NCBI GenBank assembly: GCA_037439965.1
Contig: JBBIVB010000001.1
Span: 31,895-95,894, forward strand
DNA from: Candidatus Veblenbacteria bacterium
GTDB taxonomy: Bacteria > Patescibacteriota > Patescibacteriia > Veblenbacterales > UBA10138
DNA length: 64,000 nucleotides
Reading direction: 5' to 3'
The translations under genes and the position numbers were made by a program. Under the pieces are notes generated by a model. It saw only the letters and a list, made by a program, of their open reading frames with translations, was not told the origin of the DNA and did not search any database. Numbering within the stretch: the stretch's first letter is position 1; each line of letters starts with the position of its first letter. Shown here one piece after another: positions 15,007 through 47,339 of this stretch.

Positions 15007-15237
15007 AATTATTTTTACTAAAAGCGGATAGAGGAACCCGCCAAAGGCGAATATTTCGGGGCGCAACGTGCCAAGCAGTGCATATATTTTATGTACTAAT
15101 TTTAACTTGACTTTTATTTATAATGATATAAAGTTATGATAGCTGAAATAAACAAAAAATCGTAAATTTGGCTAAAAACCTAGTTTTTTGTACTTTAATA
15201 ATTCATTAAAACCTTAACAAACTCCTTGGAGGATATA

Positions 15238-16704
15238 ATGAAAAATATATTCTTTGTAATTGTTTTGCTGTTTTTATTAAACTCGCTGGTCCTAGCCCAA
15301 GATCCGGCTGTTAATTACATTCAGGCCTTTCCGGAAAAAAGTATGGTAAAAACAGGACAGGAATTTGATGTACTGGTTCGTATTAATACCGGTAAGCTAT
15401 CTGTATATTCCGCCAGCTTTATCCTGGATTATGGCGATACTTATAATCTGGATGTCGTCAGTGTTTCAGGGGGCGATTTCCTGGGCAGTGATACATTATT
15501 TGCAGCTATTATCAAAGAAGCAAACAGTGATGTTCATATTTCTATCTCTCAAAAAGGTGAGGCTTCAGGTAATGTTGGCATCGGCACTTTGGCTATAGTA
15601 AGATTCCGCGCCAATAACGCCGCTAATATGGATATACGAACAGTTAATCTTTATTGCTTTGAGTTAGACATACGTGATCCCAATACTAAAGTTCTTAATA
15701 TTAGTAATACTTCTAGCCAACTGACTATTGCCGAGACTTTTGTCTGGCCAGGTGATGCTGACAACAACGGTATGGTTAACGAAGCAGATATTCTGCAAAT
15801 TGGTTTGCATTTTAACCAAACCGGTAATGCACGACCTAATGCTAGTTTTGATTGGAAAGCTCAACCAATGTCGTTTTGGAATGATACTACAGCGATGTAT
15901 GTTGACGCTACAGGGGACGGCAGAATCAAAATAAATGATATGCCAGCAATAGGATTTAATTACGGATTAACACACTTTAGTATAATGCCTATAACTTCCC
16001 CTTTGATACTACTAGACAAAATCGCGGCGGATAACAAGCTTTATGCTATTGCTAATCGTGTTGGTAATGAGGTTACCGTTTCAGTAATTGCTAAGGCGGC
16101 GCAAGATTTATTCGGCATCTCCTTTAAGATATTTTATAATCCTGCTGAGCTTTCCTTTATTGACGCTTATAATGGCGAATATATGCCCGGCGGTATCTTT
16201 TTTAAACATGTGGACACTAATCAAGGTTTACTAGCTTCTGCCGTAACTTTGACCAGAGGTGAAGATGGGGTAACAGATACTAAAAGCGTAATGATAGCGC
16301 GATTTAATATGCTAGACAATGATCTGAACTTACATTTCCAGGATGTTGTAGCGTATAACACTGCGGGTAATCGTATAGAATTTGAAGTTACTGATTTATC
16401 CGAAGTATTGGGGGTAAAAGATGAGATAGCGCCGACTGAATATTCATTGGCACAAAATTATCCCAATCCGTTTAATCCCACTACAACAATCAGGTATACA
16501 TTACCACGGGCTTCAACAGTAACGTTGATCATCTATAATGTTCTTGGTCAGAAAGTAATTTCTTTGGTAAATAGCCACCAAAATCCTGGAACTTACACAG
16601 TTCCGGTTAATGCTTCAGAACTATCTGATGGTATATATTTCTATACTTTGAGTGCCGGAGCCGGAACATTCACACAAACAAAAACAATGATGTTGGTTAA
16701 GTAA
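15238..16704 (+). CDS. Secreted cohesin/dockerin-like protein with a type IX secretion system C-terminal sorting domain (Por_Secre_tail-type CTD)
   Basis: GGAGG RBS 6 nt upstream of the ATG at 15238. Signal peptide MKNIFFVIVLLFLLNSLVLAQDP. Dockerin-like DADNNGMVNEADIL and DATGDGRIKINDM repeats. C-terminus LAQNYPNPFNPTTTIRYTLP...LIIYNVLGQKV...SDGIYFYTL matches the T9SS CTD consensus. Codon usage is visibly richer in CTG/CCG/GGC/GCC than in flanking genes. Confidence 0.7.
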   Translation: MKNIFFVIVLLFLLNSLVLAQDPAVNYIQAFPEKSMVKTGQEFDVLVRINTGKLSVYSASFILDYGDTYNLDVVSVSGGDFLGSDTLFAAIIKEANSDVHISISQKGEASGNVGIGTLAIVRFRANNAANMDIRTVNLYCFELDIRDPNTKVLNISNTSSQLTIAETFVWPGDADNNGMVNEADILQIGLHFNQTGNARPNASFDWKAQPMSFWNDTTAMYVDATGDGRIKINDMPAIGFNYGLTHFSIMPITSPLILLDKIAADNKLYAIANRVGNEVTVSVIAKAAQDLFGISFKIFYNPAELSFIDAYNGEYMPGGIFFKHVDTNQGLLASAVTLTRGEDGVTDTKSVMIARFNMLDNDLNLHFQDVVAYNTAGNRIEFEVTDLSEVLGVKDEIAPTEYSLAQNYPNPFNPTTTIRYTLPRASTVTLIIYNVLGQKVISLVNSHQNPGTYTVPVNASELSDGIYFYTLSAGAGTFTQTKTMMLVK

Positions 16705-18628: not shown

Positions 18629-20123
18629 AATGGTATTTCTTAGTAAAAAAATAATTTACCGTTTATGGGAAATGCTACCTGGGTTTTTAACTTGGGCAAC
18701 TCTCTTAGGGTGTGTGGTTATTTCTATAGTTCGCCCGATGTGGGCTATTTATTTTATTATTATTTTTGATTTGTATTGGCTATGGCGGGTGATATACTTA
18801 GCAATTTATATTTTAATCTCCTGGCATAAATACCGCAGGGATGTAAAAATTAACTGGTTTTTGGAAGCAAAAAAACTGCCGCGCTTTAATGAAATCTATC
18901 ATATAGTTTTCTTACCTACCTATAAAGAACCAATAGAAGTAATTAGATTATCTTTAAAATCATTAGCTCATAATAACTATCCTTTAACCAGAATGATAGT
19001 TGTCTTAGGTGGAGAAGCAAGAGATAAGGAAAAATTTCAAGTTACTGCCGAGACATTAAAGCAAGAATTTGCTGGAACTTTTTATAAATTTTTAGTAACC
19101 CTACACCCCGACGATATAGTGGGGGAGTTAGCTGGTAAGGGTTCTAATATCCATTGGATGGGATTACGTGCCAAAGAATTAATAGACCAATTACAAATTC
19201 CTTATTCTAATATTATTGTCTCCACTTTTGATGTAGATACCTGTGTATCTCATCACTACTTCTCCTATTTAACCTATAAATATCTAACTCATCCACATCC
19301 AGAACGTTCAAGTTTTCAACCGGTAGCTATTTATAATAATAATATTTGGGAATCATACTCTTTGAATAGAATTATTGCTTATTCCACCACCTTCTGGTTA
19401 TTTTCTGATATGGCCCGCTTAGACCGACTTTGTACTTTTTCCTCGCATTCTATGTCTTGGCGGACTTTAGTTGAGGTGGGTTTTTGGCAAAATGATGTGG
19501 TGTCGGAGGATTCGCGTATTTTCTGGCAATGCTTTACTCATTATCATGGCAACTACTCAGTAACGCCACTTTTTTTACCAGTGTCTATGGATACTGTTTA
19601 TACAGGCAAATTATGGAGCACGATGGTAAATCAATATAAACAACAGCGACGCTGGGCTTATGGTGCAGAAAATATACCCTATGTAGCAATACACTTTTGT
19701 TATGATAAACAAATACCGCTGGGTAAAAAATTAAAGCAGTTTTTTAATTTAGTGGAGGGTTATTATTCCTGGGCTACCGCGCCAATTATTATTTTCCTGC
19801 TCGGACGCTTACCTTTATATTTCTTAAGTGGAGAAGAAGAACAAAGTTTAATAGCCCATAATGCCCCAATTATTCTTAACTGGTTGATGATTTTAGCTAT
19901 GATTGGTTTGCTTTTAAGTGCTATTTTGTCAGTGATTTTACTACCACCCAAGCCTCAACATCACCCAAATTTAAAATATGTGGTAATGATTTTGCAGTGG
20001 CTATTATTCCCTATAGCTATGTTATTTTTTAGTGCCTTGCCGGCTATTGATGCCCAAACTAGATTACTTTTAGGAAAATATATGGGCTTTTGGGTAACGG
20101 CTAAACAGCGGAGTAAAACTTAA
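18576..20123 (+). CDS. Processive family-2 glycosyltransferase (cellulose/chitin/hyaluronan synthase-like), integral membrane
   Basis: N- and C-terminal TM bundles flank a cytoplasmic GT-A domain. QQRRW (QxxRW) processivity motif at NQYKQQRRWAYGAENI. An alternative in-frame start ATG at 18630 follows the stop of the upstream small ORF. Confidence 0.65.
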   Translation: MDGVKFMKAAGKIILANKMVFLSKKIIYRLWEMLPGFLTWATLLGCVVISIVRPMWAIYFIIIFDLYWLWRVIYLAIYILISWHKYRRDVKINWFLEAKKLPRFNEIYHIVFLPTYKEPIEVIRLSLKSLAHNNYPLTRMIVVLGGEARDKEKFQVTAETLKQEFAGTFYKFLVTLHPDDIVGELAGKGSNIHWMGLRAKELIDQLQIPYSNIIVSTFDVDTCVSHHYFSYLTYKYLTHPHPERSSFQPVAIYNNNIWESYSLNRIIAYSTTFWLFSDMARLDRLCTFSSHSMSWRTLVEVGFWQNDVVSEDSRIFWQCFTHYHGNYSVTPLFLPVSMDTVYTGKLWSTMVNQYKQQRRWAYGAENIPYVAIHFCYDKQIPLGKKLKQFFNLVEGYYSWATAPIIIFLLGRLPLYFLSGEEEQSLIAHNAPIILNWLMILAMIGLLLSAILSVILLPPKPQHHPNLKYVVMILQWLLFPIAMLFFSALPAIDAQTRLLLGKYMGFWVTAKQRSKT

Positions 20124-20471
20124 TTTAATCTTGACCTAAAAACCACCAAATTAGTTAAACAGATTTTTTTAAGATATTATCGCTTCTTCTTCATTAACTA
20201 GGCGCGGCTGAAAATAATCTTCAATAATTACAGGTATCAATCGTAGTTCGGCGATGCTGATTTCTTTGCTTTTAACCAAAGTTACTCTTTCAACATTAAA
20301 CCTTCGCGTGTCTCCTGGCTATACATGTGGTAGCTAACTGCTTTTTTAATACCACTGGCGTCAAGACTATATCAACCGACTGTTCAAGCCACAAAAACAG
20401 CAGCAAGAAAAACGGCATTACTGAATAAATTATGAGTAAAATAAAAATCAACCAAAGATAACGTAATATAA

Positions 20472-21404
20472 TTAACCAAGCTTACTACTAATAAAATTTT
20501 TGTGGCCTAAAATAAAATTCTGAGCTGATAACGCTTTACCGCCAGCTAATTGTAATTCTTTAATTTCCAATGCCATATCTTGAGCATCGACTAATAATTT
20601 ACCATTTTGATAACGAACCAATCCGGTTGAGACGGCTGGTTCCTGACTTAATGAAATTTTTGATAATTTAACACGCTTTTTTTGCCAAAAAGTATAAATA
20701 CCAGGCCATGAAACATACGCCCGCCATTGGTTATAAATTGTTTGTGCGTTTTGCTGCCAATTAATCTGCCCGTCTTCGCGTTTAATAATTTTACAAAAAG
20801 TAGCTTGGGTGTGGTCTTGGGGTAATAATTTAATTTCTTGGTTTAAATACTTAGGTAGATTTTCAACGAGCAATCTGGCAGCCGCTTTGGCTGATTTAAT
20901 TTCTAATTCATTTATTGTTTCGTCCAACGTTAGATTAATTTTAGTTTGGGCAATAATCGGACCATGATCAACTTCATTATCTAACTTGATTAAAGTTACA
21001 CCGCTTAGCTTCTCGCCAGCTAATAATACTGCTTGCAGAGGAGATGGGCCTCGCCATTTTGGTAAAAGCGAAGGATGAACATTAATAATGCCTTGGACAA
21101 ATAAAGAAATAATAGGAGAAGGAATAATTTTACCAAAAGACGCCAAAATCGCTAATTTACAGTTAGTTTGGGTTAATTTTTCTAAAATCGTTTGATTTTT
21201 AAAACTAGTAACTTCTAAATATGCCAAATTATGCTGCTGACAAAAAAGAATAAGTGAGCTTGGTTGGAGAATTTGTTTACGGCCAGAGGGTTTGGTTTGA
21301 GGGACAACGACTAACTTGGGCTGGAAACTTTGACAAACCAATTCTTCTAAAACTACTTGGGAGAAACTACTGGAACCAAAAAAAACATAATCAAAATTTG
21401 CCAT
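20472..21404 (-). CDS. fmt: Methionyl-tRNA formyltransferase
   Basis: 310 aa, N-terminal formyltransferase domain with HPSLLPKWRGPSPLQ and SGVTLIKLDNEVDHGPII motifs. Overlaps def in the usual def-fmt arrangement. Confidence 0.85.
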   Translation of the reverse strand: MANFDYVFFGSSSFSQVVLEELVCQSFQPKLVVVPQTKPSGRKQILQPSSLILFCQQHNLAYLEVTSFKNQTILEKLTQTNCKLAILASFGKIIPSPIISLFVQGIINVHPSLLPKWRGPSPLQAVLLAGEKLSGVTLIKLDNEVDHGPIIAQTKINLTLDETINELEIKSAKAAARLLVENLPKYLNQEIKLLPQDHTQATFCKIIKREDGQINWQQNAQTIYNQWRAYVSWPGIYTFWQKKRVKLSKISLSQEPAVSTGLVRYQNGKLLVDAQDMALEIKELQLAGGKALSAQNFILGHKNFISSKLG

Positions 21405-21912
21405 ATTGACTCAATAAGTCTTGACCGCTGGTTATCTTACTTACTTTATCGGTAAATAAAATACCATTTAAGTGGTCTACTTCATGCTGATAAACTCTAG
21501 CTAGTAAACCAGTTAATCGTTCTGTAATAGTTTTACCAAATTCATCTTGATAATGTGCCGTTACTGAATTAGGTCTTTTGACGATGCCAAATACTCCTGG
21601 TACTGATAAACACCCTTCTTCTATTTTTACCTTACGCCAAGATTTGTTTAATAATTGAGGATTAAAAAATACCCTCGGGCCTTGACTAGTATTAATAACT
21701 ATTAATTTAATACTAAAACCAACCTGCGGCGCGGCTAAACCAATGCCGTCGTGAATCATCATCGCCTTACACATCTCTGGCACTAATTTAACCATCTCTT
21801 GAGTTAAAGGAAAAGTTATCATCTCGGTTTTTTGGCGTAATATCTTATTAGGAACTGTTATAATTTTTAACATATCTAATTTAAGATAAAATAAACCTTG
21901 GCTCTCTGTCAA
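21391..21912 (-). CDS. def: Peptide deformylase
   Basis: GIGLAAPQVG, EGCLSVPG and HEVDHLNG metal-binding motifs. Confidence 0.85.
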   Translation of the reverse strand: MTESQGLFYLKLDMLKIITVPNKILRQKTEMITFPLTQEMVKLVPEMCKAMMIHDGIGLAAPQVGFSIKLIVINTSQGPRVFFNPQLLNKSWRKVKIEEGCLSVPGVFGIVKRPNSVTAHYQDEFGKTITERLTGLLARVYQHEVDHLNGILFTDKVSKITSGQDLLSQYGKF

Positions 21913-23737
21913 TAATTAACTGACGAGGTAGGAAAGGCCACAAACTTTCTATTTTAAATTTTTTAGGACACTTTAATAACAAATGATAAATATACTGTCC
22001 GTGTTCTATTATTCTGCTATCCGCATAAATAGGGGAGAGGACCAACTCACTGGATAAAACTTTAATTAACTGCTGGCGAAGTTTGATGATTGCCTGACGA
22101 GCTTTCAGCTGATTTTTATTTTTAACCGACAAACGCACTAATTGACTAAACGGCGGCCAATAATATAACTGCCGATAAGACAAAAGATAACGATAAAACT
22201 GATTATTGTTAGTTAAATATTTAAGCACGGGCGATTCAGGAAAATTAGTTTCTAATAACACACTAACACTATCAGACTCGCTTAATATTTTACGCAAAAT
22301 AGCCCCAGCGGTTTCTTCAGCTCTAAATTCTGGTGATAATAAATTTTGGTCAAAGGAAGTAATTACTAATAATGCAAAATCAGCTACTTTAGCATAATCC
22401 CAAATCAAAGAGGTACTAATTACTATCTGAGCAGATTTAATCTCTTTGACGGTAATTTTTGTTTTTGTATTATAATCCACTCGACAAATATGAACGTCGG
22501 GATACCGCTGTCGACAAGCATGCTCTATTTCTTGACTACCAACACCTAAAAACTTCCATTGCACATTTTGACACTTAGGGCAACGAGCTGGTAATTCACT
22601 AATAGTTTGACAATTGTGACAAGCTAGCTTTCTTTTATCATGATGCCAAGATAAGGGTTTTAAACATTTTTGACACCGGGGTATATATTTACAATCACGA
22701 CAAAAAACAGCAGTAGATGAACCTAAACGGTTATGCCAAATTAACACTTTTTGTTTACTCTCTAAACTAGCAGTAATTTGTTCCCATGAACTTAAAGCTA
22801 ATTGTTTGCTAACTGTAGGATTAGCCGAGATATCAACTATGGTAAGCCGCCCACTAAACAATAAACCTAGGTTTTGCAATTGCCATTCTTTATTCATTAA
22901 ATAATAATCTTCGGCTCTAGGCGCTGGCGTAACCTGTGCTAGGGAACAACCATAAATTTGTTTAAGCCAACGCGCTACTTCTATACTATTGTAACGAGGA
23001 TTTTGGTCATACTGTTTATAATTTTCATCATCACCATAATCTATAATTACACCACCTAAATTTAACCAGGGTAAAAACAATGCTGATCTGGTGCCGATAA
23101 TTATTTTAGCCTCGCCGGTAAATACTTTTTGCCAAGTTATTCTTTTAGCTGAAGTTTTTAATTCAGAATGCCAGCCAACTATTTGATTAGCTTGGAATAA
23201 TTTATTCTGCCAATCTAAAATTAATTTAATATTAGGCACTAATAATAAAACTTGCTGTTGCCGCCCTATTACTTTATTTATTGCTGCTTGGATAAATTTT
23301 TCTGCCTCTAGTCTTTGCCCATAAGTAATCAACAAAGGTTTTGACGTAGGTAGAGCTTTTTTTATTTTTTGTTGAGGCCTTATTATCACGTGCTCTTTGG
23401 TGGTTACTGGAAATGGTATAAATAATTGACTAGCAGTACTCATAGATACGGCGTAATAGTGAGCCAGTCTAGCTAATAATTTAAGTTGTCCAGAACTTAA
23501 AAACTTAGGCCATTTAATTGTTTGAATATCTTTTAGAGGATAGTTAGGCTTACTGGATTCAAAACCTAAAATTAAACCTAAGGTTTTTTGCTGGCGAAAA
23601 TTAACTTGCACTAAATCTCCAGCTGCTACTTGTCTTATTAGTTTAATTGGAACTTGATAAGAAAAAAAATCTTTATCACGGGGTAGACGGCCAAATAAAG
23701 CTACTCGAGCAACTTTTTTATAATGAGCAGTGTTCAT
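21881..23737 (-). CDS. priA: Primosomal protein N' (PriA) homolog with degenerate helicase ATPase motifs
   Basis: PriA-type Cys4-Cys4 zinc-binding region CRDCKYIPRCQKCLKPLSWHHDKRKLACHNCQ...CPKCQ, with overall PriA architecture. The Walker A position reads TYGQRLEAEKF (no GKT). The DEEH position reads DYGDD. Confidence 0.75.
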   Translation of the reverse strand: MNTAHYKKVARVALFGRLPRDKDFFSYQVPIKLIRQVAAGDLVQVNFRQQKTLGLILGFESSKPNYPLKDIQTIKWPKFLSSGQLKLLARLAHYYAVSMSTASQLFIPFPVTTKEHVIIRPQQKIKKALPTSKPLLITYGQRLEAEKFIQAAINKVIGRQQQVLLLVPNIKLILDWQNKLFQANQIVGWHSELKTSAKRITWQKVFTGEAKIIIGTRSALFLPWLNLGGVIIDYGDDENYKQYDQNPRYNSIEVARWLKQIYGCSLAQVTPAPRAEDYYLMNKEWQLQNLGLLFSGRLTIVDISANPTVSKQLALSSWEQITASLESKQKVLIWHNRLGSSTAVFCRDCKYIPRCQKCLKPLSWHHDKRKLACHNCQTISELPARCPKCQNVQWKFLGVGSQEIEHACRQRYPDVHICRVDYNTKTKITVKEIKSAQIVISTSLIWDYAKVADFALLVITSFDQNLLSPEFRAEETAGAILRKILSESDSVSVLLETNFPESPVLKYLTNNNQFYRYLLSYRQLYYWPPFSQLVRLSVKNKNQLKARQAIIKLRQQLIKVLSSELVLSPIYADSRIIEHGQYIYHLLLKCPKKFKIESLWPFLPRQLIIDREPRFILS

Positions 23738-23740
23738 AAT

Positions 23741-24505
23741 CTACCAGGTAACACTAGTGATTAATTGATGAATTAAACCGTCGTCTTCGTCAGCTAGAAT
23801 TAAAGTTTTAACTTGCGTGTCAAGTAAAATATACATCAAAGATAAGGGTAAAAGACAATTTTCTTGCACCGCTTGACGTAATTTATTATCTAACTCCAAT
23901 AAACGCGAATAATTCGCAGTTTTTAAAATTTTTCTTAAATTAGTAATATAAATTTTATAATCACCTTGTTCTTTTTGGGGAATGTGGGCGGGGATACCAG
24001 CAGCTAGAACTACTATCTTTTCAGGGCGCGAACTAAAAAAATCCTGCATAATTTTTCCTATATGCAATAAATCGTCCATCGGTAACAGGGGCGATAAATT
24101 TATCGGCGCTACTAAGCAATCAATTTGACTATAAAATAAAGGAATAGCAATATCGGTTGGTAATTCAGGGACGGTTCTTAAGGGTACGCTGATTTTCTTT
24201 TCTAAAAACTCTTTTAAAGAATGAATAAAGCCGGTTGCCCCTGAAAATTTTTTATGAGTTACTAAATCTCCTACGGTATGGAAATTTGCTAGATAATCAG
24301 ATTGTTGCCAAAACCACAACGGGATATTATCCCACGTATTGCTTTGGGTAATAATTACTACCACTTCAGGACGGTGTTTTCTTATAATCCTGGCTAATTT
24401 AGCCAAAGCATGGCTAGTAATAGTTAGCTTACTACGAAATTTAGATTTAATACCCGGCAGAAAATATGGTGTGTTGGTAATAAAACCAGCAGCTACGATT
24501 GGCAT
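23741..24505 (-). CDS. Hypothetical protein, possibly LigB/DODA-type (class III extradiol dioxygenase-like) fold with non-conserved catalytic histidines
   Basis: 254 aa. The N-terminal pattern MPIVAAGFITNTPYF...PEVVVIITQSNTWDN parallels the HGSP and SAHW strands of YgiD/LigB-type proteins, but His is replaced by Asn/Thr. This is a low-confidence recollection. Confidence 0.3.
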   Translation of the reverse strand: MPIVAAGFITNTPYFLPGIKSKFRSKLTITSHALAKLARIIRKHRPEVVVIITQSNTWDNIPLWFWQQSDYLANFHTVGDLVTHKKFSGATGFIHSLKEFLEKKISVPLRTVPELPTDIAIPLFYSQIDCLVAPINLSPLLPMDDLLHIGKIMQDFFSSRPEKIVVLAAGIPAHIPQKEQGDYKIYITNLRKILKTANYSRLLELDNKLRQAVQENCLLPLSLMYILLDTQVKTLILADEDDGLIHQLITSVTW

Positions 24506-24507
24506 AT

Positions 24508-25920
24508 TTAAAATGGTTCTCCTATAGCTTCTCCTAATTCATGTGCATTAATGGCTCCATCTGTAGTAACAATAATATTTTTACTCTCATAACCCAATTC
24601 TTGGAAAGCATCCTCGGTTAAAATTGGACGACGTTTACTATTAGAAATTACATAGACTGTGGGATTGGTCTGAGAACGAACTAGGTCACCATCTTTAAAC
24701 AATAGCGGATCACCAGTTGGAAATTTCTCTAACTCTTGAGTGGTCATCTTTTTAGTTACTTTGCGTGAACCAAAGTTAGCTTTAAGTATTTCTCGTGAAA
24801 AAATGGGGTGTTTAATATTATCCTGCACCCAATAAACACCACCTGATTTCTTATCTTGAATTAATTGACCTAAAGGATATATGGACTCTTCGGTAATTGG
24901 TTGACCTTCTTTATACGCCGCTAAATCTTCCCAAGAAACATTAATAATTTCTTCGGGATTAATACCTATTTGCTTTAAAGCTTTTTTAGAAGCAAAGCCG
25001 CGAATTATACCATTAGGCATTAGGATGTAAACTGTGCCACTCGGTGATTTTAAGAAAGAGTAAACCGTAAACTTAATAGGACTACCCTCAGGATATTTTT
25101 GTAATTCTCTCAAACTTACAGTTAATACACGATCAAAATTTGGATAGTAAGATAAATAAACAGCACGCGAACTAAACTTATGACGTTCACCATCTTTAAT
25201 TAACCAAACTTCACGTTTACCTTCTACATTTAATAAACTACCATCTGGATAGATACGAGAAAAATATTTATTCCAAAGATACCACAATAACTCATTACCT
25301 TCTAGATGTGGAGTATAAGTATAAAGAATAGCAGTAGCTTTATTAGCTGGAACAACAGTTTTGCCGTCTACCCGCTTGGCTATCCCTGGGCCAAAACCAA
25401 AAGGGGTTTTGCCGGTAGAGATTAATGCTGGTAAATATTTTTCTCTAATAATTTTAGCTGCCCAAATAACTTGATTAAAAAATCCTTTATATTTAAGCAA
25501 TAAAGGATCATCCATACTGCAAGTATCACATAAAGCGTACCCTGTCGCCCAATCAAATCTTTTATCAGTTGTATTATTACTTTCAATTAAACCTTGTTCT
25601 TTTTGTAGCAAAACTAAAAGATATTTAGGATTGATTTGATAAGTTTGAGAAGCGTAATAGATTATTTTTAAGGCTGACCAATTAGTAATGGGGTCGGTAT
25701 AAGAAAGTAGAGGGCTATTTTTATCTTGCAAAAATTTTTCTATTTGTTCCAAAGTCAAAGATTGATAATCTAAAATATCCTGATCCAATAAAATATAGGT
25801 CGGATCAAATTTAGATTGAGCTATGGCTGATATAGGCCAACTTAGTATGGAAAGTAACAACCAAAGGGCATTAATTTTTGTTACAATTTTTGTTTGTATC
25901 ATATTCAAATTATACAACAA
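24508..25920 (-). CDS. Secreted or membrane-anchored protein with four C-terminal ~47-aa tandem repeats; N-terminal region possibly lysozyme-like
   Basis: N-terminal hydrophobic helix. Repeats begin EVWLIKDGERHKF, GTVYILMPNGIIRGF, GGVYWVQDNIKHPIF and PTVYVISNSKRRPIL. The LLVLLQKEQGL segment is reminiscent of muramidase catalytic Glu context (weak). Confidence 0.4.
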   Translation of the reverse strand: MLYNLNMIQTKIVTKINALWLLLSILSWPISAIAQSKFDPTYILLDQDILDYQSLTLEQIEKFLQDKNSPLLSYTDPITNWSALKIIYYASQTYQINPKYLLVLLQKEQGLIESNNTTDKRFDWATGYALCDTCSMDDPLLLKYKGFFNQVIWAAKIIREKYLPALISTGKTPFGFGPGIAKRVDGKTVVPANKATAILYTYTPHLEGNELLWYLWNKYFSRIYPDGSLLNVEGKREVWLIKDGERHKFSSRAVYLSYYPNFDRVLTVSLRELQKYPEGSPIKFTVYSFLKSPSGTVYILMPNGIIRGFASKKALKQIGINPEEIINVSWEDLAAYKEGQPITEESIYPLGQLIQDKKSGGVYWVQDNIKHPIFSREILKANFGSRKVTKKMTTQELEKFPTGDPLLFKDGDLVRSQTNPTVYVISNSKRRPILTEDAFQELGYESKNIIVTTDGAINAHELGEAIGEPF

Positions 25921-25991
25921 ATAAATAATTTACACAATAAAACTCTGGATTAGAGAAAAGGTTAATAAAATGGTATAATAAATTAACTACT

Positions 25992-26513
25992 ATGAGATTA
26001 TTTTTTGGCTGCTTTTTACCTCCGCCAATAATAGCTGATTTAACCAAATTATATCAGGAACTAGGAACTATTAAGGCTAAATTGGTGGAGCCACATAATC
26101 TGCATCTTAATTTAGTATTTATAGGAGAAGTTAAAGAGAGCGATTTAGCAAAGGTGATAAAAATAGGGGAGTTAGCAGCCAGTCAAAACCATATTTTAAA
26201 AATTAAATTAGCAGGCTATGATTTAATACCAAATAAGCAAAAACCACGGGTACTGGCTATTAAAACTAAGGCAGACCAAGAGTTTAATTTACTGCAAAAA
26301 TGTCTTAGCCAAAACCTAGCCATTTTAGGCTATATTACTAATATCAAACCAGCCCATTTAACCCTAGCTAGATTAAAATCTGCTATTATAAATCCTTTAC
26401 CTGACTTTAATCCATTTTTTGCTAATATTAGCAAATTTTCTTTAATTAAAAGCCAACTTACATTCTCTGGCCCTATTTATACCCCATTACAATCATTTAA
26501 ATTGGCTTCCTGA
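25992..26513 (+). CDS. 2H phosphoesterase family protein (LigT/ThpR-like 2'-5' RNA ligase)
   Basis: 173 aa with two H-x-[T/N]-x motifs (HLNLVF and AHLTLARL) spaced as in LigT. Confidence 0.45.
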   Translation: MRLFFGCFLPPPIIADLTKLYQELGTIKAKLVEPHNLHLNLVFIGEVKESDLAKVIKIGELAASQNHILKIKLAGYDLIPNKQKPRVLAIKTKADQEFNLLQKCLSQNLAILGYITNIKPAHLTLARLKSAIINPLPDFNPFFANISKFSLIKSQLTFSGPIYTPLQSFKLAS

Positions 26514-26593
26514 GTATTGTTCTGGTTTGTGTTATATTTATTTTTTGTTTATTAGGTACCTAAATTAGACTTTTTAAAACTTGGAATCTACTT

Positions 26594-28024
26594 ATGAGCA
26601 TTAGAGTAAGATTTGCACCATCACCCACAGGCGAACTCCATATTGGTGGAGCGAGAACTGCTTTATATAATTATCTGGTAGCTAAAAAAGCGGGTGGACA
26701 ATTTATTTTACGTTTAGAAGATACCGACCAAGAAAGATACATTAAAGGTAGCGAACAAAGACTTCTAGACGATTTATTGTGGCTTGGATTATCTTGGGAT
26801 GAAGGACCTGATATTGGTGGATATCATGGACCATATATTCAATCACAACGCTTAAAAATATACCAAGAACATGCTCAAAAATTACTAGCCAGCGGCGAAG
26901 CTTATTATTGTTTTTGTTCTGAAGACAGATTGCAAACTTTACGGAAGGAACAAACGGCCTCGGGACAACCTACTAAATATGATCGCCATTGTCTTAGTTT
27001 AAATAAAGAACAAATTAAAAATAAAATTAAAGAGGCTGGTAAATATGTTATACGACTAAAGATTCCCGATGGTTTCACTCAATTTACTGATTCCATACAT
27101 GGTCAAATAAAAGTTGATAATCAAACTATTGATGATCAAATATTAATAAAATCTGATGGTTATCCAACTTATCATTTAGCCTGTGTAGTAGACGACCATT
27201 TAATGGAAATAACTAATGTGATTAGGGGGGAAGAGTGGCTACCTTCTACACCCAAACATGTTTTACTATATCAAGCTTTTGGTTGGACCCCGCCCACTTG
27301 GACACATTTACCCAATGTTTTAAATACACAACGTGTTAAATTATCTAAACGTAAAGATGGAGAGACTGTTTGGTTATCAACCTATAGGCGACAAGGTTAT
27401 TTACCAGCAGCTTTAATTAACTTTTTGGCGCTACTTGGTTGGCATCCTCATGATAATCGTGAATTATTTACCCTGGCAGAGTTAGTAAAAGAATTTGATT
27501 TAGCCAGAGTACAAAAAGCTGGAGCAATTTTTGATTTGGATAAATTGTATTGGTTTAACGCTCAATATATTAAAAAGATGGAAATAACAACTTTGGATAA
27601 ATTATTAAAAGATTTTTATCCCCAAACAAAATTTAATACCTTACCCTTAACTCAAATTTTACAAACACGTTTGACTACTTTAGCCGAAGTTAAAACTATT
27701 GCTGAATTTTTTTTTGTAGATCAAGTAAGTTTAACTAAAAATAAATTAATACCAAAAGATAGCTTCCTAGAAGATACAATTAAAGCTCTGGGATTGAGTA
27801 AAGAAAAGCTTAGTAAATTAACTCACTGGGAAATATCGGCTTTGCAAAACTGTTTAACTAATCTAATAGCAGAATATAATTTTACTCGTCGGCAAGTTTT
27901 GTGGCCCATTAGAGTAGCTTTAACTGGTCAAGAGAAATCACCTGATGTTTTTGATGTTTTGTGGGCCTTGGGTAAAGAAAGAAGTTTGGTTAGGATTGAG
28001 CGTGCTTTGAGTTTATTAACTTAA
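26594..28024 (+). CDS. gltX: Glutamyl-tRNA synthetase
   Basis: IRVRFAPSPTGELHIGGARTALYNYL (HIGH motif) and KLSKRK (KMSKS-type), 476 aa. Confidence 0.9.
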   Translation: MSIRVRFAPSPTGELHIGGARTALYNYLVAKKAGGQFILRLEDTDQERYIKGSEQRLLDDLLWLGLSWDEGPDIGGYHGPYIQSQRLKIYQEHAQKLLASGEAYYCFCSEDRLQTLRKEQTASGQPTKYDRHCLSLNKEQIKNKIKEAGKYVIRLKIPDGFTQFTDSIHGQIKVDNQTIDDQILIKSDGYPTYHLACVVDDHLMEITNVIRGEEWLPSTPKHVLLYQAFGWTPPTWTHLPNVLNTQRVKLSKRKDGETVWLSTYRRQGYLPAALINFLALLGWHPHDNRELFTLAELVKEFDLARVQKAGAIFDLDKLYWFNAQYIKKMEITTLDKLLKDFYPQTKFNTLPLTQILQTRLTTLAEVKTIAEFFFVDQVSLTKNKLIPKDSFLEDTIKALGLSKEKLSKLTHWEISALQNCLTNLIAEYNFTRRQVLWPIRVALTGQEKSPDVFDVLWALGKERSLVRIERALSLLT

Positions 28025-28028
28025 AATT

Positions 28029-29228
28029 ATGCACTCTGATTGGAAAATATTGCTTATAGTCTTAAGTCTCTCTTTTTTAATTGGAGGGTGGGGGATAGCC
28101 GCTACTCCAATAGAAGAACTGAACAATAAAATTCAGCAAGAAAAACAAAAACTAGAAGAAACGCAAAAGAAAATTGAGGAATATCAGCAACAGATTGCCG
28201 TCAAACAAGCTGAAGTTAATTCTCTAAAAAAACAGTTAAATGTCTTGGATGATAAAATCTCCCAAGCTGAACTTGATTTAAAAGCTAACGAGCTCAATCT
28301 TAATACTATTAGTTTAGAAATTCAAAGTATCACTTTAGAAATCAAAAATAAGGATGCTCAAATCAATGTGACTAAAGATAAAATAGCTGAAGTTTTACGT
28401 CAGTTATATTTAGCTGACCAAAAAAATTTATTAGAAATTCTCCTGCTCCATGAAAGATTAGGAGACTTTTTTGACCAGTTAAATTATTTGCAGGAATTAC
28501 AAAATACTTTGCAATCTAATGTAGATTATTTACAAAAATTAAAAGTTGAATTAGAAAATCAACAGCAGAATTTATCTAATAAAAAAATAAAATTATTGGA
28601 TATTAAAAAATCATTGGAGATTTCCCAATCTCTATTAACCGCTACTAAGGAGGAAAAAACTTATTTAATTCAACAAACCAAACAATCAGAAAATCGCTAT
28701 CAATTATTATTAGCTCAAGCTATCTCTGAACAAGAATCTGCTAATCTTGATATTCAACGAATGGAATCAGAATTAAGACAAAAAATAGCTAATGAAAAAG
28801 AATATACTCAATTATCCGATGCTAATTTTATTTGGCCCATTAATCCAGCTTTGGGTATCACCGCTTATTTTCATGATCCAGATTATCCTTTTAGAAAATA
28901 CTTTGAACATCCAGCTATAGATATCAGGGCTAAACAAGGTACACCAATTAAAGCTGCTGCTTCGGGTTACGTAGGAAGAGCTAAAGATGCAGGCTATGGT
29001 TATAGTTATATTATGTTAATTCATGGCAATAATTTTTCTACTGTTTACGGTCATGTTTCAAAAATAAATGTTTCCGAAGGAGATTTTGTAACCAAAGGAC
29101 AAATTATTGGTTTAAGTGGTGGGTTACCCGGCACTCCTGGCGCGGGCAGATTAACCACTGGAGCTCATTTACACTTTGAATTACGTTATAATGGTTTGCC
29201 TATTGACCCTTTGGAATATCTACCATAA
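28029..29228 (+). CDS. M23 family metallopeptidase with long N-terminal coiled coil (EnvC-like murein hydrolase/activator)
   Basis: Signal/TM, then about 230 aa of heptad-rich coiled coil, then a LytM domain with HPAIDIRAKQGTPI...GHVS...GAHLHFELRYNG. Confidence 0.75.
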   Translation: MHSDWKILLIVLSLSFLIGGWGIAATPIEELNNKIQQEKQKLEETQKKIEEYQQQIAVKQAEVNSLKKQLNVLDDKISQAELDLKANELNLNTISLEIQSITLEIKNKDAQINVTKDKIAEVLRQLYLADQKNLLEILLLHERLGDFFDQLNYLQELQNTLQSNVDYLQKLKVELENQQQNLSNKKIKLLDIKKSLEISQSLLTATKEEKTYLIQQTKQSENRYQLLLAQAISEQESANLDIQRMESELRQKIANEKEYTQLSDANFIWPINPALGITAYFHDPDYPFRKYFEHPAIDIRAKQGTPIKAAASGYVGRAKDAGYGYSYIMLIHGNNFSTVYGHVSKINVSEGDFVTKGQIIGLSGGLPGTPGAGRLTTGAHLHFELRYNGLPIDPLEYLP

Positions 29229-29778
29229 TAGGGGAGATGTAATGTAAGATAATAACGCGGATTGTTAAAACAGCGATAAAAAGTATATTAATTTATTATC
29301 AGACAAAAAATAATTTAGCATATTTTTGCTATCAAACTGTCCTAAAAATATACCTCTTTGATAAAATGGGAGAGGTTTAAAATTTGAATAATCTTTAATA
29401 TTAAGCGTCGCACAATAAATCTTATACGAAGCATAAGATATGCTATAGTAATCTAAAACTATAAAAGAGTGAAATGCTAGAATTCAGCACATTATTTTTA
29501 TCTTTAGCCTTCTTTTTCAAGAGTTCACGGCGTTTTATATCGTTTCCATAATTAAAAGTAAATACTTAAAAATTATACCTAGCTAGTATTATTATCCAAG
29601 ACCTACTATTAAGCGAAGTTAACTATTATTAGATGATTCATCTTTTGATGATTCGTTTTTGCTTTTATCATATATTGTTGTTGGTTTTATCTTAATAAAA
29701 ATTGATTCATATCGATTTGATCAAATTAATAAAATTTAGTTAATTATATTTAATTTTCAGTTAAGTGTCGTAAAATAT

Positions 29779-30630
29779 TTATTTGAGCTTAATATATGCT
29801 TTGCCAAATCTAACATCAATATAATCAATCTTGTTTCTATCATCTTTATATTTCTGCTCTATAATCTGCTTTAATAAATTAGCTTGTTCATAAACATCAG
29901 TAACGCTAGAAATATAAACCAGCCACCCCTCACTTGTTTTAATATACAAAGTAGGCCAATCTGCTTCTTTAATATCTACATATTCTATACCTCCCGGAAT
30001 TTTTAATTGCTCCCAGTCAAATAAAAATTTTTCCAAAAAATCAATTATTTGTTTAGATGTTACCTGACTGCCAACATTAACAACTTCTATACTACTCTTA
30101 AACAAAGGTAAATCTGGTTCTTGGGTTCTATCAGCAATACTATCTATCACCACTCCCCTCTTATCTAATAGATATAACCCGCTTCCTGCCTGCCAAACAG
30201 CTATTACCGGATTTTCTTTTACCTGCACTCGCAACACACCAGGCCAAGAGCGGAAGAAATTAATTTCTGAAACATACATTTTTTGGGCAATATACTCTTG
30301 GCATGCTTTATGGCTAAAAACTAGTAAATTATTTTGCGGTAGAATATAAAATTTAGGCTGGGCTATACATTCCCACACTAATTGCTCAATTCTATTATTA
30401 ATCAAGCGTGAACTAGTAGCTGAAAGAATTACATTGCGTATTTTAAATAATGGCGAATAAAGTAATAAAGCAATAATTATTAGTAGAGATAATAAAATTG
30501 CTCGCTTAAACCAAACAGTTTTTGGATTAGCTTGTGACACATTATAACTTCTAGCTAATTCAAAGGAAGTGACCGGTAAACGATAAGTTTTTTTAGCAAA
30601 CCGTTTATTAATAATTCTCCGACGTGCCAT
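29779..30630 (-). CDS. ftsQ: Cell division protein FtsQ/DivIB-like (POTRA-containing)
   Basis: Basic N-terminus, one TM helix, a POTRA-like beta-alpha region, and a position immediately downstream of ddl as in dcw clusters. Confidence 0.55.
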   Translation of the reverse strand: MARRRIINKRFAKKTYRLPVTSFELARSYNVSQANPKTVWFKRAILLSLLIIIALLLYSPLFKIRNVILSATSSRLINNRIEQLVWECIAQPKFYILPQNNLLVFSHKACQEYIAQKMYVSEINFFRSWPGVLRVQVKENPVIAVWQAGSGLYLLDKRGVVIDSIADRTQEPDLPLFKSSIEVVNVGSQVTSKQIIDFLEKFLFDWEQLKIPGGIEYVDIKEADWPTLYIKTSEGWLVYISSVTDVYEQANLLKQIIEQKYKDDRNKIDYIDVRFGKAYIKLK

Positions 30631-42357: not shown

Positions 42358-43410
42358 TTACCTTATCTCGGTTGATTCCCGCGGCGGCAATAATAAATCT
42401 TTGGTGTGTTCCAAATCTTCTAAAATTATCCCTGCACCCCTGACTACACAAGTTAAAGGATCATCAGTTACTTGCACTGGAATAAACAATTCCGCTGATA
42501 TCAACTTATCTAAGCCTTTTAGCAACGAACCGCCGCCCACCATAATAATTCCACGCTGGTATATATCGGCTGCTAATTCTGGAGGGGTTTGCTCAATAGT
42601 AGACCTAATATTTTCAATAATTAACTTAATAATCTTAAGTAAAGCTTCTCTGATTTCTGTTTCACTTACCATAACCTCTCGCGGTAAACCAGTAATTAAA
42701 TGACGTCCGCGGACATTTATATTTAAAGGTTTGCTTTGTGGTATAGCTGAACCAATTTTTATTTTAACTTCCTCAGCAGTCTTTTCACCAACCAATAAAT
42801 TAAAATTTTCTCGTAAATAATGAATGATGCTATCGGTTAACTCATCACCAGCGACGCGTAAAGATTGCGAAGTAACCACTCCGCCTAAGGAAATTACCGC
42901 AATTTCTGTAGTACCACCGCCAATATCAACCAACATATTACCACTAGGGTCCCTAACAGGTAATCTAGCACCCAAAGCTGCAGCCATTGGCTCCTCTACC
43001 AATAAAACTTCCCTGGCGCCAGCTGATAACGCCGCGTCTTCTACTGCTTTACGTTCTACTTCAGTTACATCTAATGGAATACCAATAACTACTCTTGGCC
43101 TAGCTGCTAATCTAAAACCTTCTTTGTGCACGCGGTCAATAAAATATTTAAGCATTTTTTCTGTTACTTCAAAATCAGAAATAACACCATCTACTAGGGG
43201 TCTGGTAGCAATAATATGCGGCGGGGTTTTACCTAACATTTTTCTAGCTTCTTCTCCTACAGCTAAAATTTGATCCGAACGAGTATTCACCGCCACGATT
43301 GATGGCTCATTAATAATAATTCCCCTATCCTTCACATAAACCAGCGTATTAGCCGTGCCTAAATCTATAGCCATATCACGACTAAAGGCGGCAAATAACT
43401 TCTTTAGCAT
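42358..43410 (-). CDS. mreB: Rod shape-determining actin homolog MreB
   Basis: IDLGTANTLVYVKDRGIIINEPSIVAV phosphate-1 motif, 350 aa, full actin-fold motifs. Confidence 0.9.
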   Translation of the reverse strand: MLKKLFAAFSRDMAIDLGTANTLVYVKDRGIIINEPSIVAVNTRSDQILAVGEEARKMLGKTPPHIIATRPLVDGVISDFEVTEKMLKYFIDRVHKEGFRLAARPRVVIGIPLDVTEVERKAVEDAALSAGAREVLLVEEPMAAALGARLPVRDPSGNMLVDIGGGTTEIAVISLGGVVTSQSLRVAGDELTDSIIHYLRENFNLLVGEKTAEEVKIKIGSAIPQSKPLNINVRGRHLITGLPREVMVSETEIREALLKIIKLIIENIRSTIEQTPPELAADIYQRGIIMVGGGSLLKGLDKLISAELFIPVQVTDDPLTCVVRGAGIILEDLEHTKDLLLPPRESTEIR

Positions 43411-45209: not shown

Positions 45210-46058
45210 TTATAAAGTTGTAATTGGTCTAAATTGAGTAATATAAAATTTACCAGCACTATAAGCCCATTCAATATCTTGCGGAGATTTATAGTGTTTT
45301 TCTATACTAAGGCATATTTTAGCTAACTCCAGAATTTGCTTACCAGTTAACTTTTGCTTACCAATTTTATCTTTAATAATATTTTTCCAAACATTACCTC
45401 CCTGTACCATGCCTTCTAAATAACGCGATAAGCCATAGCACGCCTTTATAATCATTTGATTTTTATCTTTAGTAACTGGGTAATAGTAAAAGCAATACCA
45501 GCGATTTCTGACTGCATCATAGCCTGCACTACCACGGCCACGGAAACTTTAGCTTTATGTAATTTTTTCTCATGAAGATAGAAAATAGCGCGCGGCGTAA
45601 ATAATGAGGACCAACAATCCTTTACTCTTTTAAGCAAAGTTTTTAATTGGTGTTTAAATAGGTTTCTAACTCCCCTACCCATGAGGCTTGTGAGTAATCC
45701 TCTGCTGTAACACTAGAGCGAACAGCAATCAATTTTACTTTGAGTTTTTTAAATTCTGTTAAAATTATTTTTTGTAAATCTTTTGGCATTTTAGCTTTAT
45801 TTATCATATCCCGAATAACTCGTGAAACTCGTTCTATTGTACTTACTTCATCATATTTTACATTTTTTAGTTAAGCCTCAATATCTACTTCCAAATCAGT
45901 TTCGTGAAAAATCTGTTAAAAGCCGATGTCAATATTACAAACCCCGGCGGCACGGGAATACCAGCTTGAGTCATCTCTCCTAAACTCGCCCGTTTACCAC
46001 CAGCTAAATGAACATCTTTTTTGGAAATTTTAGTAAAAGCTAAAATATGTGTTTCCAT
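45210..46058 (-). pseudogene. Pyruvate phosphate dikinase / PEP synthase N-terminal (PPDK_N, ATP-grasp) domain gene, disrupted by an in-frame stop and two or more frameshifts
   Basis: Minus-strand pieces in different frames are: METHILAFTKISKKDVHLAGGKRASLGEMTQAGIPVPPGFVILTSAFNRF...-stop; EVDIEA-stop-LKN...LIAVRSSVTAEDYSQASWVGELETYLNTN-stop; ...CWSSLFTPRAIFY...VAVVVQAMMQSEIAGIAFT; and ...QDIEWAYSAGKFYITQFRPITTL-stop. Confidence 0.6.
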
Positions 46059-46511: not shown

Positions 46512-47339
46512 TCATATCTTCTTAATTATACCTTTATTGGCGTCAACTTCTACCATATCTCTATCTTTTAATACCTCTAAGATACTTTTGATTCCAACAA
46601 TACAAGGCGTCCGCAACTCTCGTGCCACGATGGCAGTGTGACAAATTACCCCTCTATCTTCTGTTACATACAATAGCCGCCGCATTTTTCATGGCTGGTA
46701 CTAGTGCAGGAAAGGTAGTATGAGAAACCATAATATCTCCCTGTTTCATTTTAGGAATATCTCTTCGGGCATATTAATAATCCTAACTAGACCTTTAGCT
46801 AATCCTGGGCAAGCACAGGTACCACTTAAATTACTAATTTTAATCTTTAGCTCCCGCTCAAATTTTTGTTTACCTATAAATTTTTTAGCCTCCTTACTAA
46901 CCAATACCCTTTGTTTACCATTACTAAAATATACCACACTAAATTTCATCCGTTCGTTAGCTAACCGGGAAAAATCTTTCCCTTTAAGAACTAACGGCAA
47001 TTCTTTAGGTAATAAATATTTTGTTTACAATAATGACAATCCAGCACGTCTGCTAATTTCCGCTAAAATAAAATCTAACACAAAACAACCGTGAAAATAG
47101 CAATCTTTACGAAAACCTTTAATCCATATGATATCAGCCATTATATCAAACAGATGCTTTTCCTTATTTGATAATTTAAGTTCTTTGATGATTTTTCTGC
47201 GGACACGAGCAACTTTATTCATTTTGATACGCATTTTCTTTAATTCGGCATCCGGATTAACATCCTCATGCAATAAGCCACGCCAAACCTCTAGATAATA
47301 ATCAAAAGTATAAGCCGGACCCAAATAAGTGTAAGGCAC
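46512..47339 (-). pseudogene. PEP-utilizing enzyme (rifampin phosphotransferase / PEP synthase-like) C-terminal mobile-domain gene remnant, multiple frameshifts; the decayed region may extend to about 48027
   Basis: Fragments LSGTCACPGLAKGLVRIINMPEEI, MKQGDIMVSHTTFPALVPAMKNAAAIV and (next frame) TEDRGVICHTAIVARELRTPCIVGIKSILEVLKDRDMVEVDANKGIIKKI-stop together reconstruct a PEP-utilizing mobile domain (GxxxPG...TE.GG..sH.AIvARE..P.vVG). The ORF track shows only short ORFs here. Confidence 0.55.

Follow-up and report, generated by a model that had tools for sequence, protein, structure and literature searches.

PriA from Deinococcus radiodurans is a natural pseudohelicase. It does not conserve the residues of Walker A and Walker B and has neither ATPase nor helicase activity, but it binds forks, single-stranded DNA and, directly, the replicative helicase DnaB (Lopper, Boone & Morrow 2015, PMC4504706). 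A review names Deinococcus as the sole exception to the conservation of PriA helicase function (PMC5778457), and our search of open-access papers and bioRxiv for PriA in the Patescibacteria, or candidate phyla radiation (CPR), and for a degenerate PriA Walker A motif returned nothing beyond the Deinococcus paper. In Escherichia coli, PriA carrying the K230R substitution (priA300) has no ATPase, helicase or translocase activity and supports both primosome assembly and the PriA-PriB pathway (PMC5778457). Here we describe the priA gene in a 64-kb stretch of DNA, referred to as the window, from a Candidatus Veblenbacteria bacterium of the Patescibacteria (assembly GCA_037439965.1, contig JBBIVB010000001.1, positions 31,895 to 95,894). 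Its product retains the PriA fold and has lost the motifs of the ATP site, and we propose that it probably acts in replication restart as a scaffold without a motor.

The window gene is a member of the PriA family

The original prediction for this locus had identified the gene as a priA homolog encoding a Cys-rich, zinc-binding insert, and our searches bear out the family and the Cys-rich insert, which is predicted to bind zinc. The protein scored 264.2 bits against TIGR00595 (PriA / primosomal protein N'), above the curated equivalog cutoff of 230.35, and its 3' DNA-binding domain (3'BD) was recognised by Pfam (Table 1). A phmmer search against PDB chains matched Klebsiella and E. coli PriA with E-values of ~1e-45 (Klebsiella PriA 4nl4, E = 1.5e-45). 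Further Pfam matches lay below the gathering threshold (GA), namely the DEAD family (17.8 bits against a GA of 26), Zn_ribbon_PriA (16.2 against 26) and, just under its threshold, PriA_C (PF18074, 26.2 against 26.9), the region of which superposes on PriA structures. The Cys-rich region is inserted in the second RecA-like lobe, and all eight of its cysteines, arranged as four CxxC pairs, are 99–100% conserved in both the degenerate and the canonical groups of PriA sequences defined below.

AlphaFold2, given an alignment of 65 sequences, produced a very confident model, with a predicted local distance difference test (pLDDT) score of 93.3 and a predicted template modelling (pTM) score of 0.93. 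When this model was searched with Foldseek, the nine best PDB matches were all PriA, and the model has the two-lobe superfamily 2 (SF2) helicase-core arrangement of the solved PriAs. The top match was E. coli PriA bound to a replication fork (8fak_H, TM-score 0.86, E = 1.6e-45), followed by a PriA from which the winged-helix (WH) domain had been deleted (6dcr). The WH domain, which is present in E. coli and Klebsiella PriA and is not universal, is absent from the window protein, and canonical short PriAs are also without a full one. A low-confidence linker of 26 residues sits where E. coli PriA has this domain and where canonical PriAs have their Q-motif helix. By fold, domain set, hidden Markov model (HMM) score and locus, the gene is a member of the PriA family. 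Assignment to a non-PriA family was rejected, as TIGR00595 scored above its cutoff and the best PDB matches were all PriA.

The motifs of the ATP site have been lost

The replacements that the original prediction had reported at the two Walker motifs were recovered to within one codon. The sequence LITYGQRLEAEKF, placed at the Walker A position at nt 23294–23329, occupies residues 136–148 (nt 23294–23332), and IIDYGDD, placed at the DEEH box at nt 23030–23047, occupies residues 231–237 (nt 23027–23047). In the alignment with canonical PriAs, the catalytic lysine of Walker A is replaced by A145 and the adjoining threonine by E146. The 618-residue protein has no GK[TS] tripeptide at any position, as had also been claimed, and no intact GxGKT or DExH motif was found elsewhere in it.

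The alignment showed that motif loss is broader than this. The Q motif, which is present in canonical PriAs, is deleted, and the corresponding block is gapped throughout the subclade to which the window protein belongs. The TPQ part of motif Ia has become LIL, the SAT of motif III has become VTP, and motifs V and VI are likewise gone (Table 1); PF00271 has no match in the protein. Conservation was compared column by column between 133 degenerate and 107 canonical sequences, the two groups being set by regular expressions. The columns that had lost conservation were those of the Q motif (121), motif I (139–147), the TPQ of motif Ia (172–173), the Glu and His of motif II (234 and 236), motif III (269–272), motif V (443–448) and motif VI (483–491). 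The residues that now stand at motifs I, III, V and VI, including those in place of both motif VI arginines, and at the Glu and His of motif II are not conserved.

The structural models point in the same direction. As a control we used the AlphaFold2 model of a canonical Patescibacteria PriA, P0027 (pLDDT 93.5), in which a Q-motif helix (135–149) precedes strand beta1 (155–159), followed by a six-residue coil, GPTASG, and by helix alpha1, which starts at the Walker lysine. In the model of the window protein the Q-motif helix is absent, beta1 comprises residues 135–139, and only two coil residues separate it from alpha1, which starts at R142. Since a two-residue turn has taken the place of a six-residue P-loop, the phosphate-binding loop is predicted to be physically gone rather than mutated. 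The sequence comparisons and the models together suggest that every element for binding and hydrolysing ATP has been lost, and that the protein would be unable to translocate on or unwind DNA. As it is without the enzymatic motifs of the family, it should not be named a helicase.

Elements of fork recognition are retained

Conservation in the degenerate group is concentrated elsewhere, with ~50 columns highly conserved. These include Y27, G40, G54 and Y95 in the 3'BD; P168, G215, R217, A219, F221, P223, D233, K241, R248 and P273 in lobe 1; N336, R337, G339, the eight cysteines, G398 and G400 in motif IV and the Cys-rich region; D421, G441, T442, D463, E475, Q496 and T497 in lobe 2; and R522, P528, P529, D610 and P613 in the C-terminal domain, the first three of which are invariant.

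Several of these columns belong to elements of recognised function in E. coli PriA. The 3'BD of the E. coli protein has a pocket in which Asp17 is required to recognise the 3' end (PMC4129139, PMC5175346). In the F-[D/S/T]-Y pocket of the degenerate members the tyrosine is present in 133 of 133 sequences and Asp, Ser or Thr in 130 of 133; Ser and Thr are common in the Asp17 column even among canonical PriAs. The aromatic-rich loop (ARL) of E. coli PriA crosslinks to the lagging-strand template (PMC5175346), and K241, Q242, R248 and Y249 of the window protein match K328, Q329, R334 and Y335 of that loop. Conservation of the ARL is high, with K241 at 90% and R248 at 94%, and P247 is invariant in A1. 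The GTRSALFLP element in the motif Ib/Ic region is also well conserved across the 133 degenerate members (G215 94%, R217 83%, F221 84%, P223 89%), as it is in canonical PriAs.

The degenerate state recurs in related Patescibacteria

The same state was found in relatives of the window gene. Walker A and motif VI are missing from the ~24 nearest of the best 120 homologs, and DExH is missing as well from nearly all of those ~24; the rest have Walker A, motif VI (with one exception) and mostly DEEH. Searching the Genome Taxonomy Database (GTDB) with a seq­uence alignment of seven members of the window protein's own subclade, which is the part of the family that this survey covers, yielded 11 syntenic loci. 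All 11 are degenerate, and each has an intact open reading frame (ORF) with four CxxC pairs. A profile of 20 degenerate members was also searched against 1.84 billion representative proteins, and the best 150 matches, which come from separate 50%-identity clusters and all score above 537 bits, contained 139 new clusters. Sorted by regular expression, 106 of the 139 are without all three motifs, 19 are partial and 14 are canonical; the sample was enriched by the clade-specific profile, and these counts are not a measure of prevalence. Of the best 150 clusters as a whole, at least 120 are degenerate. Intact full-length ORFs were present in more than 100 clusters at 50% identity. The named relatives are all metagenome-assembled genomes (MAGs) of the Patescibacteria/Parcubacteria group, including Ca. 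Kerfeldbacteria, Ca. Magasanikbacteria and Ca. Parcubacteria.

In a neighbour-joining tree, which is a crude one based on a single alignment, the main degenerate clade falls within the diversity of canonical Patescibacteria PriAs. Two further, partly degenerate proteins, P0034 and P0036, form a pair that branches beside the canonical, Parcubacteria-type P0055, P0073 and P0031; this pair has lost Walker A (which reads IAGGEKIE) and motif VI and has kept DEEQ. This topology suggests that motor loss in P0034 and P0036 was independent and perhaps more recent, and that there were at least two independent motor losses within the Patescibacteria. In the reading that we prefer, loss of the ATP site is old and has persisted throughout a large clade of the Patescibacteria.

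The MAG records of four loci (L001, L002, L008 and L009) are titled 'uncultured Gammaproteobacteria bacterium', yet their gene content and order match Patescibacteria loci. These titles are probably default or wrong taxonomic labels.

priA is under purifying selection at its ancestral locus

The original prediction had described the gene as retained next to def and fmt, and both the selection and the synteny analyses agree with this description. In the closest pair of loci, L008 and L010 (91% identity, dS 0.42–0.47), priA has a dN/dS of 0.12–0.15, against 0.085 for the adjacent def. This is the reliable pair, as pairs at ~63% identity are saturated (NG86 dS 1.0–3.1) and give indicative values. 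Between the window and L001, where dS (~1.7) is near saturation, priA has a dN/dS of 0.17, within a range of 0.06–0.28 for its neighbours. priA is under purifying selection and is not decaying.

The gene order gltX, LigT-like, 470-aa ORF, 254-aa ORF, priA, def, fmt and GT2 is conserved across L001–L009. A similar order surrounds canonical priA genes. At the canonical P0027 locus (L014), gltX and LigT precede priA, which is followed by one inserted gene and then by def-fmt (a Formyl_trans pair), and LigT adjoins priA at the canonical P0055 locus. Since the degenerate gene shares this neighbourhood with canonical priA, it occupies the ancestral priA position and is an ortholog rather than a paralog.

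A probable motorless scaffold and the alternatives to it

Taken together, the sequences, the models and the analogy with characterised proteins make it probable that the window gene encodes a scaffold-only pseudohelicase, one that would recognise abandoned forks and recruit the replicative helicase without motor activity. In this proposal the genome's PriA ortholog became a pseudohelicase that kept the 3'BD, the two RecA-like lobes, the Cys-rich region, predicted to bind zinc, and a putative C-terminal domain, and most likely continues to carry out the share of PriA's work that needs no motor. GTRSALF, the ARL, motif IV and the Cys-rich region would hold the parental duplex and the lagging-strand template, and the bound PriA would serve as a platform to which DnaB could be recruited, either directly or through a loader. 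The precedents of D. radiodurans PriA and E. coli K230R make such a role plausible. The original prediction had likewise suggested a scaffold-only variant. Those parts of it that can be examined in silico, loss of the ATP site and retention of the DNA-binding elements, held up; the scaffold function we infer, and the variant is not unique, the concept being known from D. radiodurans.

A number of points weigh against this proposal. For the window protein itself, ATPase loss, DNA binding and partner recruitment are each predicted from sequence and model. The column of the SSB-tail-binding residue Arg697 is gappy, variable and poorly aligned in the clade, and this contact, one of those known for PriA, may therefore have been lost. 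At ~40%, the identity of priA is below the 50–65% of most neighbours in L002–L004, which agrees with a relaxation of constraint and would allow the role to have changed. A scan of the whole 64-kb window found no gene for DnaB, a loader, PriB, DnaT, DnaD or SSB and no second PriA, and the sole replication gene besides priA is a holB-like clamp-loader subunit. As the evidence spans 64 kb, a second, intact priA may lie elsewhere in the genome. Biochemical reports noted in a review (PMC5778457) also describe an additional, weaker nucleotide site in E. coli PriA, which no structure has located.

Some of these points would also fit a protein that keeps the PriA fold merely as a chassis for ATP-independent binding of DNA structures outside restart, for instance in repair, recombination control or regulation: priA diverges faster than its housekeeping neighbours, the Arg697 column is not conserved and no primosome partner is encoded nearby. 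The clade also has a few conserved positions of its own. There are just four of these (P14, P19, D348 and P604), however, all weakly clade-specific, and they point to neither a new active site nor a new interface. The elements that were kept are exactly those of canonical fork recognition, the gene is still at the ancestral priA locus, and DnaB binding was retained in D. radiodurans, the one case studied experimentally, so that we consider a new function unlikely. Relatively fast evolution is also what a decaying gene or assembly artefact heading for loss would show, and reduced genomes do lose repair functions. Against decay stand a dN/dS of 0.12–0.17, intact ORFs in more than 100 clusters with ~50 highly conserved columns and eight near-invariant cysteines, the confident fold prediction, and the assembly of an identical protein (P0001) in both the NCBI record and the independent Logan assembly of run SRR11582156. 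In contrast to the intact ORF of priA, a PPDK-like gene elsewhere in the window, a probable pseudogene, is broken into at least four ORF fragments. A pseudogene or sequencing artefact is effectively refuted by column conservation and dN/dS, and decay is the least credible of the accounts considered here.

The view of 64 kb of the genome, together with the occurrence of both canonical and degenerate PriAs within the Patescibacteria, would also accommodate a spare copy, with a canonical, ATP-hydrolysing PriA encoded elsewhere and the degenerate protein as its accessory or regulatory partner. priA is typically single-copy, however, and the degenerate gene stands in the same gltX-LigT...priA-def-fmt position as canonical priA. 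A weaker indication is that no canonical match was present among the listed homologs from large contigs that carry degenerate copies (P0019, 984,181 bp; P0004, 469,265 bp). A spare paralog is thus very improbable, and we think equally little of the chance that the protein is an active NTPase or translocase with a non-canonical nucleotide site. For the latter one could cite D233 of motif II, which is kept, and E235, which is kept in most clade members; the window protein itself is without E235. The P-loop is predicted to have collapsed, residues that are not conserved have replaced the Walker B Glu and His, motif III, motif V and the two arginines of motif VI, and the single K230R change is enough to abolish the activity of E. 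coli PriA. A motorless restart scaffold remains the reading that we prefer.

Gene neighbourhood and other features of the window

The coordinates of priA, its elements and the two genes downstream are given in Table 1. The genes are transcribed in the order priA, def, fmt on the minus strand, with def beginning 8 nt downstream of priA, fmt overlapping the end of def, and two more tightly packed genes upstream.

Table 1. Coordinates of priA, its domains and motifs, and the downstream genes, in window positions
Feature	Position (nt)	Strand	Basis
priA ortholog, predicted ATPase-dead pseudohelicase, 618 aa	21881–23737	-	ATG start, TAA stop
def (peptide deformylase), 160 aa	21391–21873	-	PF01327 on identical Logan contig; syntenic in L001–L011
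fmt (methionyl-tRNA formyltransferase)	20472–21404	-	ORF; syntenic in L001–L010
3'BD, residues ~5–108	23414–23725	-	PF17764, 50 bits against GA 22.7
F25-S26-Y27 pocket, equivalent to E. coli F16-D17-Y18	23657–23665	-	Alignment
Linker, residues 109–134	23336–23413	-	Coil, pLDDT 67–70 in model
RecA-like lobe 1, residues ~135–300	22838–23335	-	Model secondary structure; Foldseek matches to PriA
Former Walker A / motif I, YGQRLEAE (139–146) under GxTGSGKT	23300–23323	-	Aligned to canonical PriAs with MAFFT
GTRSALFLP element, motif Ib/Ic region	23069–23095	-	Column statistics
Former Walker B / motif II, DYGD (233–236) under DEEH, Asp alone kept	23030–23041	-	HMMER alignment to 4nl4, MAFFT, column statistics
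ARL, KQYDQNPRY, equivalent to E. coli K328–Y335	22991–23017	-	Alignment
RecA-like lobe 2, residues ~301–500	22238–22837	-	Alignment blocks and column statistics
Motif IV, NRLG, kept	22721–22732	-	Alignment and column statistics
Cys-rich region, C346, C349, C355, C358, C373, C376, C386, C389	22571–22702	-	Four CxxC pairs; two zinc ions predicted
Motif V, lost; canonical TQMxxKG to TSLIWDY (STSLIWDY)	22394–22417	-	Alignment
PEFRAEE, kept	22313–22333	-	Alignment and column statistics
Motif VI, lost; canonical QxxGRxGR to KILSESDS	22268–22291	-	Alignment
Putative PriA C-terminal domain, residues ~501–618	21884–22237	-	Confidently folded in model

The 254-aa ORF (23741–24505, minus strand) stops 3 nt ahead of the start of priA, and the two genes are syntenic in L001–L009. 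The ORF is fast-evolving, with 24–35% identity in L002–L009 against 50–65% for its neighbours, and its sole match was a sub-threshold one to the LigB superfamily (E = 0.0076, 15.8 bits), with no PDB match by sequence. The 470-aa ORF (24508–25920, minus strand) has a hydrophobic N-terminus and no Pfam family match, and ranks with the most highly conserved of the genes around it (80% identity to L001, 42–63% across L002–L009, dN/dS ~0.08); it is an uncharacterised, strongly constrained Patescibacteria protein. Neither gene is present at the canonical priA loci L014 and L015. Both were considered as PriA partners, and neither the family and PDB searches nor the canonical loci established a link.

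The window has a G+C content of ~34% and carries the housekeeping genes murJ, lepA, ftsE/X, ddl, alr, greA and those of several aminoacyl-tRNA synthetases, together with genes for a PBP2-type transpeptidase, mreB/C, frr, the holB-like subunit, rpsI and many glycosyltransferases. Two full-length MreB/Mbl paralogs lie within 11 kb of each other on the minus strand, at 42358–43410 and 52938–53945 (474 and 427 bits), the former adjoining mreC and the PBP2-type transpeptidase. In an ORF-poor stretch at 45.2–48.0 kb, which had no Rfam matches, there is a fragmented PEP-utilising enzyme on the minus strand (45210–46058 and 46512–46685). Four consecutive short ORFs at 45210–46058 match positions 2–38, 71–129, 129–189 and 253–311 of the PPDK_N profile, and a 57-aa ORF upstream of them matches the PEP-utilizers mobile domain. 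The PPDK_N-type fragments have the look of a true pseudogene, or else of several frameshift errors in succession.

A change in both GC skew and gene orientation falls at ~20000–30000. Over the first 20 kb (1 to 20 kb) skew is positive, with most genes on the plus strand; between 30 and 64 kb it is strongly negative (-0.15 to -0.24), with nearly every gene on the minus strand. This convergent pattern may fit a replication terminus, or plain coding-strand bias. A 492-aa protein encoded at 15226–16704 on the plus strand combines a cohesin domain with a Por_Secre_tail domain, the C-terminal sorting domain of type IX secretion, which is unexpected in the Patescibacteria. This sorting signal is best known from the Bacteroidota.

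Implications and comparison with known PriA proteins

We put at about even the chance that much of the Patescibacteria (CPR) radiation lost the PriA motor repeatedly and has stably remained without it, so that the loss would not be an oddity of Deinococcus. If so, a major bacterial branch would restart replication with a purely structural PriA, and DnaB might be handed to the fork directly, without intermediaries of the PriB/DnaT or DnaD/DnaB/DnaI type. The helicase function of PriA, long thought conserved, would then be dispensable in nature where genomes and lifestyles are reduced. The Patescibacteria offer a second natural experiment after Deinococcus, apparently a much larger one, and lend comparative support to the view that fork recognition and scaffolding are the core of PriA function and the motor an accessory. 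The conservation pattern separates residues of ATP turnover, which were lost, from a scaffolding set that was kept (the 3'BD pocket, the ARL, motif IV, the zinc-binding region, PEFRAxE and the C-terminal R...PPF), and because the two separate it should be useful for dissecting the mechanism of PriA. Annotators should be aware that the product name 'replication restart helicase PriA' misleads when given to the degenerate genes.

The canonical Patescibacteria PriAs (P0027, P0055, P0031 and P0073; ~650–730 aa) resemble the window protein in being short, in having no full WH domain and in their 3'BD, Cys-rich region and C-terminal domain (the last being putative in the window protein). They differ from it in their intact Q motif, GxxxSGKT, DEE[HQ], SAT, TQMxxKG and QxxGRxGR, and in the six-residue P-loop of the P0027 model. 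The E. coli WH-deletion PriA (6dcr) has the same set of 3'BD, helicase core, Cys-rich region and C-terminal domain without a WH, but is an engineered construct of an active helicase. The E. coli priA300 and K230A/D mutants, which are dead as ATPase, helicase and translocase but assemble primosomes, show that the scaffold role is separable from the motor, as we propose for the window protein. They are, however, engineered single-residue changes in an otherwise intact enzyme and rely on PriB and DnaT, for which the scan of the window revealed no genes; E. coli PriA without helicase activity also fails in the PriA-PriC pathway, so that the motor is still needed in some contexts.

The closest parallel is D. 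radiodurans PriA, which is likewise a PriA ortholog with non-conservative loss of catalytic residues in motifs I and II, read as a motorless restart scaffold. The window protein would fall into the functional class, PriA pseudohelicase, that was defined in Deinococcus. As the window protein's clade is nested among canonical Patescibacteria PriAs, its loss of the motor was most likely independent of that in Deinococcus. The degree of loss also differs: going by the published description, the motifs of the Deinococcus-Thermus proteins are still recognisable (GKT to GRT, PMC4504706), whereas in the window protein the P-loop, the Q motif and motifs III, V and VI have been erased. The D. radiodurans case rests on biochemistry, and the window protein is known here from sequence and model. 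The concept of a PriA that acts without a motor was thus already established by experiment, and the present case extends it, adding no new principle; what is new is the lineage, the degree of the loss and its apparent scale.

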